DNA of 40,619 nucleotides from a virus: the IMG/VR virus record IMGVR_UViG_3300045988_070645, positions 1-40,619 of that record. One strand, written 5' to 3'. Positions 3,052 to 40,619 of this stretch are shown here, piece by piece; positions within the stretch are counted from its first letter, which is position 1, and every line of letters starts with the position of its first letter. The notes under the pieces were generated by a model that had not been told where the DNA came from, made no database searches, and worked only from the letters and a program-made list of their open reading frames with translations. Made by a program: the position numbers and the translations under genes.

Positions 3052-3130
3052 TTTGCTGACACAAACGGACAAGAGGCGGAGCCGGGCAATGTAAAGCTCC
3101 GCCTCTCTTATAATTGGCCATGTCAGCAAA
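3052..3130. promoter_or_regulatory. Divergent control region: inverted TGTCAGCAAA motifs flank an 11-bp-stem hairpin and a TATAAT box.
   Basis: TTTGCTGACA at 3052-3061 and TGTCAGCAAA at 3121-3130. AGAGGCGGAGC(3072-3082) pairs with GCTCCGCCTCT(3096-3106). TATAAT at 3108-3113. Confidence 0.5.
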
Positions 3131-3140
3131 GGAGACCATC

Positions 3141-4310
3141 ATGGCCTACACGATCCGCCAATACGCGACGAAATCCGGCAAACGCTACGAAGTCAGATAC
3201 CGCAAGCCGGACGGCACGACCACAGGCAAAAGAGGCTTCCGGCGCAAGATGGACGCCGACGCATGGGGTGCGGCCAACGTGACCACCGCGAAAAGCGTCG
3301 GAGCATACATCGACCCGCAAGCCGGAAGACGCTTGGTCGAGGATTTTTGGGAGCCGTGGATAGCGGCCAAAAAGACCAAAGCCAAGCCAAGCTACGTCAA
3401 GTCGCTGGAAGACGCTTGGCGCGTGCATGTGGAGCCGCAGTGGGGCATGAGGGAAGTGCAGTCGATCGCGCGAGGCGAGGTGCAGGGGTGGGTCACCGAT
3501 CTGGCCGGACGGCGCAGTGCGTCCGTGACGATTCGCGCCGAGAATCTGCTTCGCAGTCTCATGGAGAGGGCGAAGGCCGATCGGTGCATCCATGACAATC
3601 CATGCGACGGCATCGAGCTGCCGCGCAAGCAGGTGCGGAAGCACGTCTATCTCTCGGCTGACGAATTGTCTCGTGTGGCGATGCAGTGCGGGTGGCGTGA
3701 GCCGATCGTGCTGACCTTGGGCCTGTGCGGCATGAGGTGGGGTGAGCTTGTGGCGCTCCGTGTCGAGGATGTCGATCTGCAACGCTGTCGGCTGCATATA
3801 TATAGGAGCATCACGCGTCTTTCCAGCAGGATGGTGGAGACCGACCCGAAAACCCATGATGGACGTTCGGTGATGTTTCCCCTGGTGTTGCGTCCACTGC
3901 TCGCCAGGCAATGCGAGGGGCGCAGGCCGTCCGATTTTCTTTTCACCGCTCCCGGCGAGCCTTTGGACGAGCCGATGGGGAATGGCTGGAATCCGACGCG
4001 AAGCGATGGGTGGTTCGCGGTGGCTCTTCGTCGCGCGGGCGTGGATCGTGGCCACATGACGATTCACGATCTGCGCCATACGGCCGCTTCGCTCATGGTG
4101 CAGTCAGGCGCGAACGTCAAGACCGTGCAAAGGCAGCTGGGGCACAAGTCGGCCGCCATGACATTGGATGTTTACGCCGATCTCTTCGATGATGATCTGG
4201 ACGAGTTGTCGGAGAGGATGGGTGGTTTGCTTTTTTCGCGGAATGTGGGCAAAATGTGGGCAAACGTGACGCAAGGTGTCGATGGAACCGTTGAAACGGT
4301 TGGTGTCTGA
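3141..4310 (+). CDS. int: Phage integrase (tyrosine recombinase)
   Basis: AAGGAGA RBS before the ATG at 3141. N-terminal arm-binding-like MAYTIRQYATKSGKRYEVRYRKPDG, plus MRWGEL (R), HDLRHTAAS (HxxR) and LDVYADL (Y). It lies next to the attP-like site. Confidence 0.9.
   Translation: MAYTIRQYATKSGKRYEVRYRKPDGTTTGKRGFRRKMDADAWGAANVTTAKSVGAYIDPQAGRRLVEDFWEPWIAAKKTKAKPSYVKSLEDAWRVHVEPQWGMREVQSIARGEVQGWVTDLAGRRSASVTIRAENLLRSLMERAKADRCIHDNPCDGIELPRKQVRKHVYLSADELSRVAMQCGWREPIVLTLGLCGMRWGELVALRVEDVDLQRCRLHIYRSITRLSSRMVETDPKTHDGRSVMFPLVLRPLLARQCEGRRPSDFLFTAPGEPLDEPMGNGWNPTRSDGWFAVALRRAGVDRGHMTIHDLRHTAASLMVQSGANVKTVQRQLGHKSAAMTLDVYADLFDDDLDELSERMGGLLFSRNVGKMWANVTQGVDGTVETVGV
4245..4262 (+). repeat. Putative arm-type site (GTGGGCAAAATGTGGGCA), copy 1, inside the int 3' end
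   Basis: 18-bp exact direct repeat of 4455..4472. Confidence 0.6.
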
Positions 4311-4322
4311 GGCTTTTTGCCG

Positions 4323-4347
4323 GTGGGTTCGAGTCCCGCTGGAGGCA
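4323..4347 (+). other. attP core candidate: the 3' end of a tRNA gene (T-arm, acceptor 3' strand and discriminator)
   Basis: GTGGG-TTCGAGT-CCCGC, then TGGAGGC-A. It lies immediately downstream of int. Confidence 0.65.
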
Positions 4348-4354
4348 CTTTTGG

Positions 4355-4385
4355 AAACCGCCAGAGATGGCGGTTTTCCTTTATT
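4355..4385 (+). terminator. Terminator following the tRNA 3' fragment
   Basis: AAACCGCCA-GAGA-TGGCGGTTT, followed by a T-rich run. Confidence 0.65.
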
Positions 4386-4416
4386 CTCCAACGGTTTTCA
4401 AGCTTTCCTATTTCAC

Positions 4417-4447
4417 TCTGATTCACGCTATTTCACGCTATTTCACG
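4417..4447 (+). repeat. 10-bp phased tandem repeat (ATTTCACGCT-like, x3), with a further CTATTTCAC at 4408
   Basis: Read directly. Units are spaced exactly 10 bp apart. Confidence 0.7.
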
Positions 4448-30589: not shown

Positions 30590-33500
30590 ATGGCAAAGAC
30601 TTTGCACGCTCGACTCGTGGCCTATCGGCCTTTCGGTGACCGACTTGGTGTGCTGGCGGAGCCGGTGAGCTTCAGCGCGTCCATGCTCCACAATGATGAC
30701 GGCGCAATCAGCATCGAATACTCTCTGCTGTCCGGTGACGCGCAGGCTTTCGACCGTGAGCTGACCGATGGTCTCGAAGTGGCCGTGGAAGTGTCGGACG
30801 GTAGTGGCTTCAGGGAGCCGGATAATGCGCGATTCGTCATCACGGGCCGCTCCGGTAAGACGGATGACCGCACCAAGACCATCACCTACAGCGGCCAGTC
30901 GATTGGCTGGCTGCTGTCCAAGGCCGAAAACAACGATTCGTCGCATCTCATCACTGACGGGGACAACAAGGGTAAGCGGCCCTTCTATAGCTCCAATCCG
31001 GGCACGATTCTCAAGACGCTGCTGGACGAAAACCGTCAGCGTGGTGGCGTGGCCACCGGCCTGACCTTGGGCTTCGACACCGCCAAGGACGCGGCTGGCA
31101 GTAATTGGGCAAAAAAGTACACTCTGTACTATTCGCTCGGCACTGATTTGCAGACCATCCTGGACGCCCTGGTCAATGGTGGCGGCTGCGACTGGCGCAC
31201 CAGTGGCCGCGCCTTGAAGCTGTGGAATGCGGATAGCACCGCATTGAGCCGTGACTTGAGCAAGAGTATTGTGCTGCAGCTTGCGCGTGACATCAGCGAG
31301 GCACCCTTCGAGGAGTCCATCGCTGACCTCGCGTCCACCATCCTTGTCGAGGGTGACAATAATCTGCTCTTCCGCATGGATAATCCGGCCGCGCCGACGC
31401 CTTGGGGCAAGTGGGAGTCCTACAGCTCGCAGGGCGGCGTGTCCGACAAGGACACCGCGCAAGCATTCATGGCATCGACGCTGGCCGACGCCGCTAGAGT
31501 GCGTGGCCAGTACACGCGCGACCTGGTGACTTCCGGTGTGGACAGTCTGCCGCTCATTGACTATCACGCCGGTGACTGGATTACCGCACCAACCGTGGCT
31601 CACGGCGAGAAGGTCCGCGTGCAGGAAATCGACCTGAGCATGCGCCAGAATGAGGGACTGACTGCCTCAATCGCCCTGAATGATATTAAGTATGACGCTT
31701 CGGTACGTCAGGCGAAGAAAATCAAGGGCATCACCGGTGGCGCGGCATTGGCTGGCAGTGAGAGCGGCACCACCGTCTCCACTGACCATGATCATCGCGT
31801 GCCGGAGGCGCCGCAGGGTCTGGTCGTGCAGACCGACGCCTACATTGGCTCGGACGGTTTCGCACATGGTCTGGCCACCGCCATGTGGTCCGCCGTGACC
31901 GAAGCGACCGACAACACTGCTATCGAAATCTCGAATTATGCCGTCGAATGGAAACAGCATAAGGATGGCGCTCCGTGGCATTCGGCAGGCACGACGGACA
32001 AGACGCAGCTCGGATTCGGCAACCTGGACTGCGGCACTCAGATCGAGGTCAGGGTACGCGCCGTGCCGACATATTCCGACAAGCTGGGTGATTGGTCGGC
32101 TGTCGTGGTGGCCACCGTCGAATCCGACACCACGCCATGCTCAGTGCCCTCCAAGCCGACAGTCTTATCCAAGCTAGGCGTGGTCACCGTCCATTGGGAC
32201 GGCAAGACCGCTGCCGGCGCGCGGATGGAGCCTGACTTCGACCATATCGAGGTGGGCGAGGGCATCAATGCGGCTGGAATGCAGGTCATCAGCGCTACCC
32301 AATCTGGTCAGGGCGCTTACGTCATCACCGGTTTGACGGGCGGCTCACAGCATAGCTATGCCTTGCGCTCCGTCGATCATGCGGGCAATCGCTCCGACTG
32401 GTCGGCCATCGCCACGGTCACGGTGGCTTCCGCCGTCTCGCCGGATGAGGTCAAACAGATCCAAAAAGACCTGGCTGACAATCAGACGGCGTTGAAGGAT
32501 AATACGGCGAAGCTGACGCAGGCGCAGAAGGACATCCAAGCCAACAAGACAGGCCTTGATTCGGCGTCCAAGTCGCTCGCGCAGGCGCAGACCGATCTGT
32601 CTCAGGCCCGGAAGGACATCGCGCAGACCAAGAGCGACCTGACCACGGCGAACGGCGAGATCAGCAAGGCGAAGGAATCCGCGGCTCAGGCGTATGCCGA
32701 AGCGCACAGCAAGAACCATACGTTTCGTGGGCCGGACGAGCCGAAGGACAATCTGATTGTCGGTGACTTGTGGCTCAAGACCCAAAAGTATTGGACGAGG
32801 TGGAAAGGCGAGAAGAACAACAGCCCTAGCCTTCTGGCCGACTTCTACACCTACTGGCAGGGAACACCCAACAACAGCCCCTCCGTGCTCGTGCCGCTCT
32901 CCGATCGCGTGATCGACACGCTGGTGTGGGATGGCTCCTCGTGGAACCATCTCGGCTATGCCGATGTGGAGCGCAATGCCGACGAAATCGCTCAGGCGAA
33001 GTCCGACATCGCGGATAACGCCGCGAAGACCACCGACGCCAAGAAGACCGCCGAGAATGCCGCTGCCGCAGCGAAAAACGCGCAGGGCACGGCTGACACG
33101 GCCAATGGTGCGGCCAGGACCGCGCAGGATACCGCCAATGCGGCCAACGCTGCCGCGAAGAGTGCGACCACCACCGCCGGTCAGGCCAAGGACGCGGCCA
33201 ATGCCGCCCAGACCGCCGCCGAGAGCGCGAAGAAGACCGCTGGCAATGCGGAGACACTGGCTAACACTGCCAATGAGTCCGCCAAGTCCGCCAAGTCCGA
33301 CGCTTCCACCGCCAAGACGGATGCGGCCAATGCGAAGACCGCCGCTGCCAATGCGTCGAGCGTGGCGACTCAGGCCAAGGCCACCGCCGATAGTGCGGCC
33401 CAGTCCGCCACCGATGCGGCCAATGCCGCGCAGAAGGCCAATACCGCTGCTGCCGCCGCCGCTGGCGTGGCTAACGGCAAGGCCGACGTGCTTATCCAGA

Positions 33501-35545
33501 GCACGGCACCGGACGCTTCGATGCGCAAGGCTTCGACCTTGTGGATTGACACCACGAATGGCGCGAACACGCCGAAAAGGTGGAATGGGTCGGCTTGGGT
33601 TGCTGTGACCGACAAGGCCGCGACCGACGCCGCCAATGCGGCTGTCAAGGCGAATGATGCGGCCAAGACCGCTCAATCCACCGCTGACAAGGCGCAGACG
33701 GCTGCGGCCAATGCCGCGTCTCAGGCGAATCAGGCTCAGGCCGCAGCGCAGAAGGCGCAGACCACTGCGGACGGTAAGAATCTGATTTACCGTGGCCCCG
33801 ACGAGCCGAATCATGATGGCTTGAAGCCGGGGGACATGTGGTGGCGCACTCAAAAATATTGGACTCGCTGGAAGGGGGAGAAGAATAATTCTCCGAGCCT
33901 CTTGGCTGACTTCTACACGTATTGGCAGGGTGCGCCCAACGCCAGCCCCTCCGTGCTGGTGCCATTGTCTGATCGCGTGGTGGAAGTCCTCACGTGGGAT
34001 GGTACGCGCTTCGAGCCATTCGACCTCGTGGCGAACAACATCCTCGCTGCTGGCACGGTGGCCGCGAAGCATCTCGCCGCCGATAGCGTGACCGCCGAGA
34101 AGGTCAAGGCCAATGCCATCACGGTGGACAAGCTCGCGGCCAATTCGGTCACGACTGAAAAGCTGGTGACTGATGCGGTGACCGCCGCGAAACTCGCCGC
34201 CAACTCGGTGCAGGCTCGGAACATCGTCGCACTGTCCATCACGTCCGACAAGATTGCCGCCAATTCGGTGACCACGGGCAAGCTCAAGGTCACGGAAGAT
34301 ATGACCGTGGCGCTGCTCAACGTCCACAAGATTCAGGCGTCCGACATTGCGGCTAATGCCGTGACCACTGCCGCTTTGGCTGCTGGCGCGGTAAACGCCG
34401 ACAATCTGGCCGCTAATTCGGTCAATGCGTCCAAGATTGTGACTGGTGCCATCACCGCCGACAAGCTGGCGGCAAACAGTGTGACGGCCGTCAAGATCGC
34501 GGCTGGCACCATCACGTCCGACAAGGTGGCGGCGGGCCAATTCAAAGGCTACGTGTTCACCGGCGCCGTCTTCCAAAGCTCCGAGGCCGAGAACACCGGC
34601 ATGAAGCTCAACTCGACCGCATTGCAAATGTGGGATTCGGCTCATAACCAGACCGTCTACCTGGACGGCGAGGGGAAGAGCAATGTGCTGACCGGCACCT
34701 TCCAGACCCGCACGAGCGGGCACAGGGTGCGTATCAGTCCGGATTACAAGTCGCACGCGATTGCCGGGTCGGAGACTTTTACCGGTGACGGATTGGAGTT
34801 TTTGGCGTACAAGGATTCGATCGCATATTACAACTATCCTACGGTCGCGTCGCTCATCGAATCGAATCAGGTCGGCTTGATGAGCGAATTGGACTTGTGG
34901 AGCGGATACGTGAGCAAGAACGACCCCGCTGCTTTCATGAGTCTCAAATCGAAGCCTCGTGCGAAAGGCGGCACCGGCAGCGGCGTCACGTCACAAGTGT
35001 ATCTGCACGCCGACACGAATTATGACGAGTCCGACTTGTCGAAAAAAAGCTCCTCATGGCTCACCATGCATGGTGTCGGCGGATCGGGTGCAAGCGCGTA
35101 TCTCAACGTGCGCAGTGATTCCGGCAGCTTGTGCGAGGTCGGCGTGCACTCGCAGGGCGCGAAGGCCCGCGCGTACTGCACCGCATCCGACGCGAACGGC
35201 GAAATCGGCATGGTGTCCGACGTCAGCGCAGGCTATCTCTACCTCGGCGGCTATCTCGGCGGCATCACAAACCGTCACACTTTTCAAAGCACCAATTGGC
35301 GCATCTACCAGAACGCGACGCTGCCTGCCGATTTCACGATCCAGCAGACCACGTGGTCATGGACGCCGGCGAAATACGGCAGATACTACGGCGTGTGCAA
35401 TGCCGACCTCAACTTTGGATCGATCTCCATGCACGTGTGCAACACCGGCGGCGCTGGATCGATGCAGGTCATGGGATACAACGCCGGAAACGGCACCTAC
35501 AAGGGCGACATGTACGTCAACGCGTTCGCGTGGCTCGTCAAATAA
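30590..35545 (+). CDS. Tail-associated/minor tail fibre protein (1651 aa)
   Basis: Position after Dit. FN3-like segments, an Ala-rich coiled coil, ANSVTxxKL repeats and an internal 81-aa duplication. Confidence 0.8.
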   Translation: MAKTLHARLVAYRPFGDRLGVLAEPVSFSASMLHNDDGAISIEYSLLSGDAQAFDRELTDGLEVAVEVSDGSGFREPDNARFVITGRSGKTDDRTKTITYSGQSIGWLLSKAENNDSSHLITDGDNKGKRPFYSSNPGTILKTLLDENRQRGGVATGLTLGFDTAKDAAGSNWAKKYTLYYSLGTDLQTILDALVNGGGCDWRTSGRALKLWNADSTALSRDLSKSIVLQLARDISEAPFEESIADLASTILVEGDNNLLFRMDNPAAPTPWGKWESYSSQGGVSDKDTAQAFMASTLADAARVRGQYTRDLVTSGVDSLPLIDYHAGDWITAPTVAHGEKVRVQEIDLSMRQNEGLTASIALNDIKYDASVRQAKKIKGITGGAALAGSESGTTVSTDHDHRVPEAPQGLVVQTDAYIGSDGFAHGLATAMWSAVTEATDNTAIEISNYAVEWKQHKDGAPWHSAGTTDKTQLGFGNLDCGTQIEVRVRAVPTYSDKLGDWSAVVVATVESDTTPCSVPSKPTVLSKLGVVTVHWDGKTAAGARMEPDFDHIEVGEGINAAGMQVISATQSGQGAYVITGLTGGSQHSYALRSVDHAGNRSDWSAIATVTVASAVSPDEVKQIQKDLADNQTALKDNTAKLTQAQKDIQANKTGLDSASKSLAQAQTDLSQARKDIAQTKSDLTTANGEISKAKESAAQAYAEAHSKNHTFRGPDEPKDNLIVGDLWLKTQKYWTRWKGEKNNSPSLLADFYTYWQGTPNNSPSVLVPLSDRVIDTLVWDGSSWNHLGYADVERNADEIAQAKSDIADNAAKTTDAKKTAENAAAAAKNAQGTADTANGAARTAQDTANAANAAAKSATTTAGQAKDAANAAQTAAESAKKTAGNAETLANTANESAKSAKSDASTAKTDAANAKTAAANASSVATQAKATADSAAQSATDAANAAQKANTAAAAAAGVANGKADVLIQSTAPDASMRKASTLWIDTTNGANTPKRWNGSAWVAVTDKAATDAANAAVKANDAAKTAQSTADKAQTAAANAASQANQAQAAAQKAQTTADGKNLIYRGPDEPNHDGLKPGDMWWRTQKYWTRWKGEKNNSPSLLADFYTYWQGAPNASPSVLVPLSDRVVEVLTWDGTRFEPFDLVANNILAAGTVAAKHLAADSVTAEKVKANAITVDKLAANSVTTEKLVTDAVTAAKLAANSVQARNIVALSITSDKIAANSVTTGKLKVTEDMTVALLNVHKIQASDIAANAVTTAALAAGAVNADNLAANSVNASKIVTGAITADKLAANSVTAVKIAAGTITSDKVAAGQFKGYVFTGAVFQSSEAENTGMKLNSTALQMWDSAHNQTVYLDGEGKSNVLTGTFQTRTSGHRVRISPDYKSHAIAGSETFTGDGLEFLAYKDSIAYYNYPTVASLIESNQVGLMSELDLWSGYVSKNDPAAFMSLKSKPRAKGGTGSGVTSQVYLHADTNYDESDLSKKSSSWLTMHGVGGSGASAYLNVRSDSGSLCEVGVHSQGAKARAYCTASDANGEIGMVSDVSAGYLYLGGYLGGITNRHTFQSTNWRIYQNATLPADFTIQQTTWSWTPAKYGRYYGVCNADLNFGSISMHVCNTGGAGSMQVMGYNAGNGTYKGDMYVNAFAWLVK

Positions 35546-36505: not shown

Positions 36506-36676
36506 TTGACTCAGATTCCAGCCGACGCGAACGAGGTCATCGACTCTCTTTCCGCGCAAATCGGCACTCTCACCAAGCAAATCGCAATCCTGACCAGTCA
36601 GCTCAACGCGGCCATGAAATTGATTCCCGCCGACGTGCTCGAAAGCGTGAAGGGAGACGAGAATGCAGAGGATTAA
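36506..36676 (+). CDS. 56-aa coiled-coil micro-protein
   Basis: TTG start after AAGGAGA. IDSLSAQIGTLTKQIAILTSQLNAAM. The gene overlaps the next ATG. Confidence 0.4.
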   Translation: MTQIPADANEVIDSLSAQIGTLTKQIAILTSQLNAAMKLIPADVLESVKGDENAED

Positions 36677-37092
36677 CCTGTGGCCGAACCCAAAGTTCGA
36701 CCCCACCGGCTTCCATGTCGTCAAAAAGGGCGGCGACATATCGAAGTACATGACCGGTGGCACGCTGGCCAACACCAGAGGCGAATACATCGACCTGCCT
36801 TTCGCGTGCGAGGTCGGCGTGGAATACGTGTGCACGTACAGGATCGTCAGCAACAATACGACGAATAAAAGTATCGGCATCTTTTTCGGCGGCACGGCCG
36901 AATACCCAAGTGCCCAGACGGTCGGGAAATATACGATCCGCTTCACCCCGACCGCCAATGACACGCGCCTGGCCATCCCCTCCGGTATGGCCATCAGCGA
37001 ATTGAGCGTGGAAGCCGCCGACACGTATGACGCGGCGCTCGGGGGGGGGGCTTCCGGGCTTCTTCTCGGGGGACACGATGCCACGCGATTAA
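36663..37092 (+). pseudogene. CBM-like cassette A, frame-disrupted at a G10 tract as assembled. With 9 G it would give a 142-aa protein ending LPGFFSGDTMPRD.
   Basis: N-terminal INLWPNPKF. After the G-run, the frame shifted by one nt encodes the family's C-terminal motif and ends at TAA 37090-92. The in-frame read-through to 37511 looks out-of-frame (rich in R, H and D). Confidence 0.65.
37041..37050 (+). repeat. Homopolymeric G10 tract
   Basis: Read directly. Confidence 0.95.
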
Positions 37093-37119
37093 GACGATTC
37101 GTCGGGCGGGTGATGTCCG

Positions 37120-37488
37120 ATGATGGTCACGAACCTATGCACGAGCCCATCCTCGACCATCACCCTGAAAGCCGACAAGTGGGTGAATATCACGACCCTT
37201 CCGAGCGTGAATGGGGCGACATATCAGATCAGCGTCGAGGTGAACGTCACAGGCGGCACTATCTCGATAATCGGAGCGGATGGCGACATCAACGCAAGAC
37301 AACGTGTCAGCTACAAGATGATCATCAACAATTCCCATCCGATATCAATGAGTTATCACGTCAAGTCAGGCAGTCCGACCGTCACAGTGACGAACATGCT
37401 CATCTGCACGTGGGGCGAATACCAGGCGAACAAGGCATTGCTCGACGGCCTTTACTTTTTCGACGGGGATACGATGCCACGCGCCTAA
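37120..37488 (+). CDS. CBM-like cassette B (122 aa)
   Basis: Ends in YFFDGDTMPRA. Same size class as cassettes A and C. Confidence 0.6.
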   Translation: MMVTNLCTSPSSTITLKADKWVNITTLPSVNGATYQISVEVNVTGGTISIIGADGDINARQRVSYKMIINNSHPISMSYHVKSGSPTVTVTNMLICTWGEYQANKALLDGLYFFDGDTMPRA

Positions 37489-37507
37489 CCCTTTTGGGGG
37501 TGGTGGC

Positions 37508-37900
37508 ATGAGTCTCATCGTTAATCACTGCGTCATGCCGAAAGACGGTGTGAGCGTCAAGACGACGAACACGACACCATCGGACATCACCTTCACGGGG
37601 TTGACGGCGGGCGTGAAATACCATGCGAGCGTCGTCTGTTACATGCTGTCCACGAGTGGCGACAATCCGCGCTTGCGTCTCACCACCAATGGCAGCAATA
37701 GTGGGCTGGTCACTTCGAATGGTCGCGTGGATTACGTCTTCACCGCCGCCAGCACCACTCACGGCATTCTCGTCGGTCTGAACAATTGCACGGTCAATCT
37801 GAGCAAGGGCTTGTGCGTGCCTCAAGACCAGTGGCAGCAGCTCGTCTCGTTGGGATTGCCGGGCAATTATTTCGATGGCGACACCATGCCAAAAGATTAA
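37508..37900 (+). CDS. CBM-like cassette C (130 aa)
   Basis: Ends in GLPGNYFDGDTMPKD. GGGGGTGG RBS. Confidence 0.6.
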   Translation: MSLIVNHCVMPKDGVSVKTTNTTPSDITFTGLTAGVKYHASVVCYMLSTSGDNPRLRLTTNGSNSGLVTSNGRVDYVFTAASTTHGILVGLNNCTVNLSKGLCVPQDQWQQLVSLGLPGNYFDGDTMPKD

Positions 37901-38597: not shown

Positions 38598-39386
38598 ATG
38601 GCAAGCGTAAGCACTTTCATCAATCGTATGCGCTACTGGTGCGCCGTCGCCAATCTCGGCTACAGCCAGTCCGACCGCTGGAACTTCAACCCATCGGGGG
38701 GTAATTGCGACTGCTCCAGTCTGGTGATCCACTGTCTCAAGGAGGCTGGTTTCGATACCGGCTCGGCCACCTACACCGGCAACTTGTCCGACAATCTGAC
38801 CAAGCGTGGCTGGAAGCGCCTGCCCGTCAACGGCAATCCGCAGCCGGGTGACATCCTGCTTAACGACGTGCACCACGTCGCGGTCTATCTGGGTGGCGGC
38901 AGGCTCGCACAGGCAAGCATCTCGGAGCGCGGCACCGCCTACGGGAAGGCCGGAGATCAGACCGCCCGCGAGACAAATATCAGGGGCTACTACAACTACC
39001 CGTGGAACTGCTACCTCCGCTACGGCGGCGGCTCTTCGGCTTCCGCCGGCGCTCTCGCGGTTGACGGCAATGTCGGTCCGGCCACGGTGCGCCGTTGGCA
39101 GCAGGTCATGGGCACTGCGGTGGATGGCATCATCAGCGGCCAGCAGGTGCCTGACGGCAGGACCTACGCGCGTCCGGCCATCGATTCGAGCGTGGTCCGC
39201 TACGGCAATGGCGGCAGTGACCTGATCCGTGCCGTGCAGCGTCGCCTAGGCTGTGGCACTGACGGTCTGCTAGGACCGGCCACCATTCGCGCCATCCAAG
39301 CGCATTACGGGTTGGCTCAGGACGCGAGCTTCGGCCCCGCGACCGCACGCGCCTTGCAGACGGCACTCAATCAAAACCGATTCTAA
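38598..39386 (+). CDS. Endolysin: NlpC/P60- or CHAP-like peptidase plus PG_binding_1-type repeats
   Basis: GNCDCSSLV ... VHHVAVYLGGG (Cys/His pair). C-terminal LAVDGNVGPATVRRWQ, TDGLLGPATIRAIQ and ASFGPATARALQ. Confidence 0.8.
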   Translation: MASVSTFINRMRYWCAVANLGYSQSDRWNFNPSGGNCDCSSLVIHCLKEAGFDTGSATYTGNLSDNLTKRGWKRLPVNGNPQPGDILLNDVHHVAVYLGGGRLAQASISERGTAYGKAGDQTARETNIRGYYNYPWNCYLRYGGGSSASAGALAVDGNVGPATVRRWQQVMGTAVDGIISGQQVPDGRTYARPAIDSSVVRYGNGGSDLIRAVQRRLGCGTDGLLGPATIRAIQAHYGLAQDASFGPATARALQTALNQNRF

Positions 39387-39707: not shown

Positions 39708-39757
39708 CTCGCGTCGGAAACTCAACCTCGCGTCGGAAACTCAACCTCGGCGTGGGA
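39708..39757 (+). repeat. 19-bp tandem repeat (CTCGCGTCGGAAACTCAAC x2, plus a degenerate third unit)
   Basis: Read directly at 39708-26 and 39727-45. Confidence 0.85.
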
Positions 39758-39859: not shown

Positions 39860-40619
39860 ATGGGCATTAGACAGCAGACGATTGACGATTACGGTGCGTT
39901 CGTGGAGAAATTCAAGCCGAAGAAGACCACGGACGACTGCTATACCCCCCCCGCGGTATATGAGGCGATAAAGGATTGGGCATGCCGTGAGTATGGCATC
40001 GACCACAGCAAGGTGGTGCGTCCCTTCTATCCGGGCGGCGACTACGAGAGTTTCGACTATTCGGACGGCAAGGTGGTGGTGGATAATCCGCCGTTCTCGA
40101 TTCTGTCGAAGATATGCGCGTTCTACCGCGACCGTGATATTCCTTTCTTCTTGTTCGCTCCGAACCTCACGATTTTCAGCAGCACGTCGCGCAACGGCGC
40201 GCATATGCTGGTCACTGATTGCGCGATCGAATACGCCAACGGCGCTATCGTCAACACCAGCTTCGTGACGAGTTTCGGCGATGACCTGATTCGCACCGCA
40301 CCGGATCTGACGAAGCTGATTAACGATGCGGTGAAACGAGTCAGGCGCGAAAGCAAGAAACATCTGCCGAAGTATGCGTATCCGCCGGAATTGTTGACCG
40401 TCACACGACTGAATAAGGTCGGCAATGCTGGCGTGGATTTCCGCGTCAAGGCTTCGGATGTGGCGTTCACGCGGGCACTCGATTCGCAGAAGGCGGTAAG
40501 GAAGGCCATCTTCGGCGGCGGCTATCTGATGAGCGAGAACAAGGCCGCGGAACTGAAGGCCGCGGAACTGAAGGCCGCGGAACTGAAGGCCGCGGAACTG
40601 AAGGCCGCGGAACTGAAGG
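39860..40619 (+). CDS. N6-adenine DNA methyltransferase-like protein, first 253 codons. The ORF has no stop before the window end and continues at 1..131.
   Basis: DDCYTPP near the N-terminus and VVVDNPPFS (motif IV-like). A C8 run lies at 39945-52. The ORF ends in KAAEL repeats. Confidence 0.6.
   Translation, partial: MGIRQQTIDDYGAFVEKFKPKKTTDDCYTPPAVYEAIKDWACREYGIDHSKVVRPFYPGGDYESFDYSDGKVVVDNPPFSILSKICAFYRDRDIPFFLFAPNLTIFSSTSRNGAHMLVTDCAIEYANGAIVNTSFVTSFGDDLIRTAPDLTKLINDAVKRVRRESKKHLPKYAYPPELLTVTRLNKVGNAGVDFRVKASDVAFTRALDSQKAVRKAIFGGGYLMSENKAAELKAAELKAAELKAAELKAAELK
40541..40619 (+). repeat. 15-bp perfect tandem array (5.3 units), the same array as 1..70
   Basis: Read directly. The last 63 nt equal the first 63 nt of the window. 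Confidence 0.95.

Follow-up and report, generated by a model that had tools for sequence, protein, structure and literature searches.

In the Campylobacter Fletchervirus, polyG tracts are said to give rise to phenotypic diversity and to evasion of bacterial resistance, as the title of their description has it. Hypermutable polyG tracts of Campylobacter phages are referred to in a passage of PMC10877375, which cites the original work (Sorensen et al. 2021, Cell Rep 35:109214). The locus described here, a run of G in the first of three tandem cassette genes (A, B and C) of a Bifidobacterium prophage, resembles that case in being a phage-encoded G homopolymer. It differs in that Fletcherviruses are lytic myophages whereas the present phage is a temperate actinobacterial siphophage with a host from another phylum, and there is no sign of protein kinship, the cassette family being without a Pfam or PHROG match. 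Set against the Fletchervirus system as known from its title, the tract described here removes only a 13-residue C-terminal motif.

G tracts are also known from the host genus. In Bifidobacterium breve, sortase-dependent pilus operons are subject to replication slippage at G tracts, and an early translation stop in these operons has polar effects on the downstream genes (Penno et al. 2022, PMC9187656); phages are not mentioned in that study. Both systems have an intragenic G tract of about 9–12 nt that sets the reading frame. The pilus loci, however, are chromosomal and two-state, with an upstream ORF that either is or is not fused to the pilin ORF, whereas the present locus lies on a prophage, has three defined outcomes and appears to be built against polarity, by means of ATGA junctions and an alternative frame that is open.

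Bifidobacteria are key commensals of the gut. Their phages are difficult to propagate, and unexplained host-range behavior of these phages has been linked to variable receptor-binding genes (PMC6109161). In the Rin shufflon of Bifidobacterium prophages, receptor-binding genes are varied by inversion, by a tyrosine invertase with 11-bp rix sites, and C-terminal cassettes are fused to an N-terminal gene that stays constant (Mavrich et al. 2018, PMC6109161). Rin is one of several inversion switches of phage receptor-binding genes, others being Gin, Cin and Min. The present locus is likewise a tail-region array of small, tandem, highly diverged cassettes, which we tentatively read as host-recognition variation, but its cassettes have their own start codons and conserved termini, and the variable element is a homopolymer. 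An invertible shufflon, of Rin type or otherwise, was considered and rejected, as all cassettes lie on the + strand and there is neither an adjacent invertase or other recombinase nor a rix-like site.

Overlapping stop and start codons (ATGA, TGATG) provide translational coupling in bacterial and phage operons. A similar arrangement is present here, where both out-of-frame paths put the terminating ribosome on the start codon of a following cassette. In an ordinary operon, the upstream gene makes use of such an overlap in its normal frame, whereas the overlaps at this locus serve solely two frameshifted readings, and the normal frame (tract length 3n) stops 27 nt upstream of the ATGA overlap. 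No G tract of a Bifidobacterium phage is described in the literature that we searched. PolyG tracts of phages and G-tract switches of Bifidobacterium are already known; the new element is the three-frame landing architecture, with an overlapping frame that is purged of stop codons.

The cassette operon and its products

The window, i.e., the whole stretch of DNA analyzed (40.6 kb, 58% GC), has the appearance of a complete temperate siphophage, with portal and capsid genes and a tape measure protein of 989 aa, and the Bifidobacterium hosts named by source records are B. adolescentis and B. ruminantium. The features that bear on the locus are as follows.

3114-4310: integrase, the only recombinase found in the window
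30590-35545: tail fiber, 1651 aa
36455-36486, + strand: terminator-like hairpin of 14 pairs followed by a T-rich tail, between the tail-fiber block and the cassette operon
36506-36676, + strand: 56-aa ORF, its last 14 nt shared with the 5' end of cassette A
36663-37040, + strand: cassette A, variable domain predicted to be a beta-sandwich (residues 1-126), with the ATG at 36663
37041-37050, + strand: hypermutable G tract, G10 (3n+1 state), read as Gly-Gly-Gly when in frame
37051-37092, + strand: conserved C-terminal motif LPGFFSGDTMPRD and TAA (37090-37092), read solely at tract length 3n
37051-37511, + strand: open 3n+1 frame of about 150 codons over the motif region, the spacer and the whole of cassette B, ending at TGA 37509-37511
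37109-37123, + strand: A-B junction, SD-like GGTGAT (37109-37114), then ATGA (37120-37123)
37120-37488, + strand: cassette B, 122 aa, C-terminus FFDGDTMPRA
37496-37511, + strand: B-C junction, SD-like GGGGGTGGTGG (37496-37506), then ATGA (37508-37511)
37508-37900, + strand: cassette C, 130 aa, C-terminus YFDGDTMPKD, alternative frames not purged of stops
38598-39386: endolysin, ELLD/NlpC-P60-type

A strong SD (AAGGGAGA) lies upstream of the cassette A start, and the short gene ahead of the cassettes (56–57 aa) is called in nine of ten related prophage loci. At the A-B junction, the ATG of the ATGA is the start of cassette B and its TGA (37121-37123) is the stop of the 3n+2 reading (G8 or G11), while at the B-C junction, the ATG is the start of cassette C and the TGA is the stop of the 3n+1 reading. 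Behind the same cassette array, two unrelated lysis modules alternate in the related prophages L110-L119, one with a GH25 + CW_7 endolysin and a Dp1-type holin, the other with an ELLD/NlpC-P60-type endolysin, which is the type found in the window. The tail fiber contains a long Ala/Thr/Lys-rich low-complexity stretch, and a block of about 45 residues within it is duplicated (KYWTRWKGEKNNSPSLLADFYTYWQG.PN.SPSVLVPLSDRV).

The G10 run reported in the first-pass annotation is real, is bounded by C on both sides (37040 and 37051) and is the longest homopolymer of the window, followed by C8 at 39945-39952; the count of ten comes from the assembled sequence and could be off by one. In dinucleotide-preserving shuffles, 0.36 runs of at least nine G are expected per window, so that one such run is, taken alone, no more than mildly unusual. 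The weight of the finding rests on the comparative data given below. With ten G, the ORF extends from 36663 to 37511 (282 aa), passes through B in another frame and ends at the TGA shared with the start of C. With nine or twelve G, it specifies 142 or 143 aa and ends in LPGFFSGDTMPRD at the TAA. Both readings had been given in the annotation, and both are borne out. With eight or eleven G, the product is 152 or 153 aa long and has the C-terminus RRAGDVR. One point is to be corrected: regaining the motif frame from G10 takes a +1 (or −2) shift, equivalent to the loss of one G, and not a −1 shift. The ending of A in the 3n frame had been taken as the conserved C-terminus of the family, and it indeed matches the ends of B and C. 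The tract sits between the predicted beta-sandwich domain and this motif, so that A has or lacks the motif according to the length of the tract modulo 3; a frame switch takes away just these 13 residues, and the domain is still encoded.

Searches of Pfam and PHROGs with A (repaired), B, C and their neighbors gave no meaningful match, and neither did a profile search of PDB sequences. In a set of 1.84 billion representatives, chosen one for each 50%-identity cluster from about 15 billion proteins, the family amounts to 41 clusters at 50% identity, all of them small, stand-alone proteins. A, B and C have a common N-terminal pattern, M..(I/V)N...P, and the conserved C-terminal motif can be written LPGFFxGDTMPxx. 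The AF2 model of A is of moderate confidence (pLDDT 62, rising to 72–83 in the core, residues 33-127), and in it, the C-terminal motif is a disordered tail that follows a beta-sandwich core. Foldseek returned weak similarities of this model (E 5e-4 to 1e-2, TM 0.4–0.47) to CBM-type beta-sandwiches and to phage tail or minor tail domains, and the core may be a generic CBM-like beta-sandwich. The cassettes are sited between the tail fiber and the lysis genes, a position which, along with the weak fold similarity, is the sole basis of a putative receptor-binding role. For both A and B, pN/pS is close to 1, and this ratio, the gene position and the swapping of A alleles would fit exchangeable host-recognition modules that dock via their conserved termini. 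The 13-residue motif probably serves to dock A to a partner protein.

In the window (36663-37120) and in the related prophages L110-L119, differing A alleles, of 142 aa (MQRINLW...) and 165 aa (MQRINWFPDPLI...), precede an identical B, and the junction of about 75 nt between them (tract, motif, spacer and B start) is nearly invariant. Because differing A alleles are joined to an identical B through a near-invariant junction, these sequences suggest that cassettes are exchanged through recombination at conserved junctions. In another sequence (P0076), B has been deleted between conserved 3' ends.

Tract length and conservation among relatives

In viral, metagenome and isolate records, 90 distinct related tracts were found, with runs of 5–12 G, and their distribution over the three frames (37/30/23) shows no departure from uniform (p=0.2). 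Exact-flank scans of IMG/VR and of metagenome contigs gave 44 sequences, which together with GenBank record MT836445 and the window make a set of 46 with identical flanks. Tract length in this set ranges from G6 to G12, with 1, 2, 9, 14, 16, 2 and 2 sequences for the seven successive lengths. Several metagenome contigs of the survey have a coverage of just 1–4x, but different lengths are also found at high coverage (107x, 30x and 26x for G9, 42x and 37x for G10, and 11x for G8). Where sequences are identical over ±1000 nt, two of the four groups differ solely at the tract (G9 vs. G8 in one, G9 vs. G7 in the other). No variation is seen in homopolymers of 5–6 nt at the same loci (n up to 39), a control that covers runs of this length only, the C8 run at 39945 having no exact-flank matches. 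The nearest GenBank record, MT836445 (96% identical), carries a tract of 9 nt that is in frame and interrupted (GGGGGGCGG); interrupted tracts are rare, the others being in P0052 and P0115.

The same length classes are seen in protein databases, where many clusters fall into each of the 141–143 aa and 151–154 aa classes, several of them with hundreds of members. Members of the 282-aa class likewise number in the hundreds, and one 50% identity cluster is represented by a 282-aa form. Ten prophages, on host contigs of 61–543 kb, encode exactly the B protein of the window, and three of these are in frame, three in the 3n+1 state and four in the 3n+2 state. The locus is widespread: in a public assembly collection, 470 blocks are indexed as containing this very B protein. 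A genome scan by DNA pattern gave two true matches and one chance match (L109). The tract is also present in an isolate, B. ruminantium DSM 6489, whose genome carries it in the 3n+2 state. The same cassette junction with G10, which is in frame there, is present on a contig binned as an uncultured Collinsella MAG (L108, CALBBA010000007.1); either the contig was wrongly binned or the phage group extends to Coriobacteriia.

The tract is a heritable length polymorphism that decides whether A bears its 13 C-terminal residues, and probably a fast-mutating switch; plain sequencing or assembly error cannot account for the length differences among otherwise identical sequences and at high coverage, the invariance of short runs and the conservation described below. 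Sequence features by which contingency loci are recognized are found at this site: an uninterrupted homopolymer of at least about 7 nt in a coding region (G10, inside the ORF at 36663-37511), a repeat number that varies between constant flanks (G6–G12 in the 46 sequences), and changes in length that alter frame and product (142/143, 152/153 and 282 aa).

A profile-guided scan recovered cassettes that are just 26–36% identical to A, and in these, a run of 5–12 G again lies directly before the motif, with all three frames represented. The codons flanking the tract differ in the diverged cassettes (e.g., GCCGTT-Gn-CTTCCG and GCGCTC-Gn-TATCCT). GGG makes up 6.5% of the Gly codons in the genes of the window, and since Gly-Gly-Gly has been kept as GGGGGGGGG across this divergence although GGG is rare, selection appears to act on the homopolymer itself. 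This conservation, the rarity of GGG and the rarity of interrupted tracts imply that the tract is upheld by selection rather than by chance. In three IMG/VR loci (L078, L079 and L084, at about 3440-4440), two tract-bearing A-type cassettes occur in tandem, in the order A1-B1-A2-B2-C, and each A cassette has its own G run and the same landing layout, giving up to nine frame combinations.

Landing sites in the three frames

Downstream of the tract, each frame ends at a particular place. In nearly all loci, those of the diverged cassettes among them, the in-frame (3n) reading meets a stop 39 nt past the tract, the 3n+2 reading terminates at 70 nt, at the TGA within the ATGA of the next cassette's start, and the 3n+1 reading is open for about 440–533 nt, through the whole of the next cassette, to the TGA in the ATGA of the following one. 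ATGA is present at both junctions in 73 of 85 loci. In each of the 46 distinct junction sequences, the third cassette has AGY (Ser), AGA (Arg), ACN or ATG as its second codon; in the window at large, A is the next base after about 30% of ATGs. As each frame ends at a defined place in the downstream genes, the arrangement suggests that all three frame states are used by the phage.

In B cassettes, the −1 (3-1-2) frame contains two stops in 8158 codons, and 65 of 66 distinct sequences are open throughout, whereas the same frame of the paralogous C cassettes has 2.9 stops per 100 codons and is open in 2 of 58. Other genes of the window have 3.15 stops per 100 codons, and 2% of control windows of 122 codons are open. 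The depletion is also seen at the level of codon choice, as T at codon position 3 before codons starting with AA, AG or GA is found in 2 of 1800 cases in B (0.1%, vs. 17% elsewhere); the corresponding values for C are 12.4% and 21.9%. When B sequences are clustered at 70% identity, nine of ten clusters are open, and the exception (L100) is a C-type cassette placed at the B position. Shuffling of synonymous codons gives a P(open) of 0.004–0.15 for each cluster, values whose joint probability would be optimistic because the loci are not phylogenetically independent. The openness of B's −1 frame is not a composition effect. The G10 form had been described in the first-pass annotation as an aberrant read-through, and it does run out of frame, but it is not merely aberrant, since conservation and statistical evidence of selection are seen both for the openness over B and for the stop on C's start codon.

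What seems to be preserved is the absence of stops. The peptide encoded by the −1 frame of B is not conserved, its amino acid identity, at matched nucleotide identity, not exceeding that of the +1 frame or those of the corresponding A and C frames, and the synonymous diversity of B is not lowered (pS 0.15, vs. 0.135 in A). From these comparisons, it appears that uninterrupted ribosome transit, and not a second protein, is under selection in this frame.

Both B and C have SD-like sequences of their own (GGTGAT and GGGGGTG, respectively). At the B-C junction, a hairpin is predicted (z=−1.9), in which the ATGCCACGCGCC codons at the end of B pair with the SD and start of C; it is conserved, and zero covarying pairs were detected in it. 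A 17-nt inverted repeat (16 of 17 positions complementary) links the SD and start of B (37109-37125) with a site 67 nt into C (37575-37591). It occurs with the 'IVNHC' type of C allele only and is absent from other C types, and as it is tied to one allele type, it was rejected as a crossover site.

Mechanism and alternative explanations

We consider it likely that the G run is an evolved contingency tract of a temperate Bifidobacterium siphophage, altered by slipped-strand mispairing and having three usable states. The first-pass annotation had offered three explanations (a slipped-strand switch in DNA, slippage in transcription or translation, and a homopolymer sequencing error), of which the DNA switch is favored, while plain sequencing or assembly error is contradicted by the pattern of lengths among relatives. 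Slipped-strand mispairing would alter the tract when DNA is replicated, be it phage DNA or the prophage as part of the host chromosome. By analogy with the G tracts of B. breve, replication slippage is the probable source of the length changes, and it may take place inside a single population. To our knowledge, actinobacteria are without MutS/MutL-type repair of indel loops.

In the 3n state, translation would end past the motif and A would be complete. In the 3n+2 state, ribosomes would terminate on the ATGA start of B, and in the 3n+1 state, which is that of G10 in the window, they would traverse B out of frame and terminate on the ATGA start of C. With these three landing sites, in no state would the remaining cassettes and the lysis genes be preceded by a long region without translation, and the layout may thereby avert translational polarity on them, of the kind described for the pilus operons. 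The cassettes produced would probably be A, B and C in the 3n state and B and C, with a tail-less A, in the 3n+2 state. The 3n+1 state would probably yield mainly C, as ribosomes coming from the strong SD of A would overrun the start of B. Having SD-like sequences of their own, B and C may depend on upstream ribosomes or may be translated independently of them.

A bolder reading, possible but doubtful in our view, is that the homopolymer is a three-position selector among three paralogous host-recognition cassettes, with A, B and C lying in frames 0, +1 and +2, so that the outcome would depend on tract length modulo 3. Ribosomes from the SD of A would finish A (3n), reach the start of B (3n+2), or overrun B to the start of C (3n+1). 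If this were true, a slip of a single base would re-target the phage among three receptor specificities, and the loci with tandem tracts (L078, L079 and L084) would have up to nine states.

Programmed recoding of a fixed DNA sequence, by RNA polymerase or by +1/−1 ribosomal slippage, would yield all three frame products from each template. A run of 8–12 G would allow tRNA-Gly to re-pair in any frame, the nascent RNA could slip as well, and the three-frame architecture is equally compatible with simultaneous production of the products. The commonest length, G10, is out of frame, which would be sensible if it were partly corrected at the level of RNA or ribosome. We nevertheless think recoding unlikely, as length polymorphism is seen directly in DNA and is sufficient alone. 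Transcriptional slippage in bacteria is best documented on A/T runs, which counts against recoding at the RNA level, and the switching of Bifidobacterium pili has been ascribed to replication slippage (PMC9187656). A programmed ribosomal frameshift site was also rejected, given that the DNA is not fixed, that A could be made from G10 only by a +1 shift, and that the predicted RNA fold at the A-B junction is no better than that of shuffled sequences (z=+0.7), with no conserved stimulatory structure found. RNA-level or ribosomal slippage could still form an extra layer over slippage in DNA.

If the 3n+1 frame were an overlapping gene, it would encode a functional fusion of the A domain with a 150-residue extension from the −1 frame of B. 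The frame is open for about 130–150 codons in nearly all distinct B cassettes (65/66), and the 282-aa form stands for a protein cluster of its own, but we judge such a gene improbable in view of the unremarkable amino acid identity of this frame and the undepressed synonymous diversity of B. The extension is, moreover, rich in R, H, D and E, variable in length, and lost where B is deleted (P0076).

More improbable still is neutral decay, by which A would be dispensable and the tract no adaptive switch but a mutational hotspot causing its inactivation. Out-of-frame tracts make up about 60%, near the two thirds that would be expected if frame were not selected, and prophage tail genes escape selection during integration. 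Against this, an uninterrupted tract is retained down to 26–36% identity despite the rarity of GGG codons, A-type domain ORFs are intact 5' of the tract in all states, and the downstream frames are specifically adapted, which would require long-term selection acting in the shifted states.

A true tract of G9 everywhere, with all variation technical, can be dismissed as scarcely credible: G runs are hard to sequence, lengths in databases can depart from the truth (PMC9187656) and some contigs are of 1–4x coverage, yet different lengths recur at high coverage, the three frames are equally common over more than 100 independent assemblies from different pipelines, and the stop purge in B and the ATGA landing sites would be left unexplained, although an error limited to the exact count in this window could have occurred.

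As a contingency tract, the locus would give Bifidobacterium prophages a second, recombinase-free route to virion diversity. Its signature, a stop-free overlapping frame without a conserved peptide, combined with stop/start overlaps that serve frameshifted readings only, shows a genome adapted to its own hypermutable tract, and can be searched for elsewhere. Gene callers are inconsistent at such sites, giving either the 282-aa fusion ORF or a B without a gene at the A position (as in L114, L115 and L117), and assemblies give one tract length only, where the population is probably mixed.

Other repeats are present toward the right end of the window. The ORF that runs off this end (39860-40619) resembles an N6-adenine DNA methyltransferase (DDCYTPP...VVDNPPFS) and contains the C8 run at 39945-39952, which encodes T-P-P, and at its end (40541-40619) are 5.3 perfect copies of a 15-nt repeat, specifying (AAELK)n. 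Both the C8 run and the 15-nt repeat could vary in length. Directly downstream of the lysis genes, at 39708-39749, is a perfect 19-nt direct repeat of 2.2 copies (CTCGCGTCGGAAACTCAAC), which might be an attachment-site or regulatory repeat.
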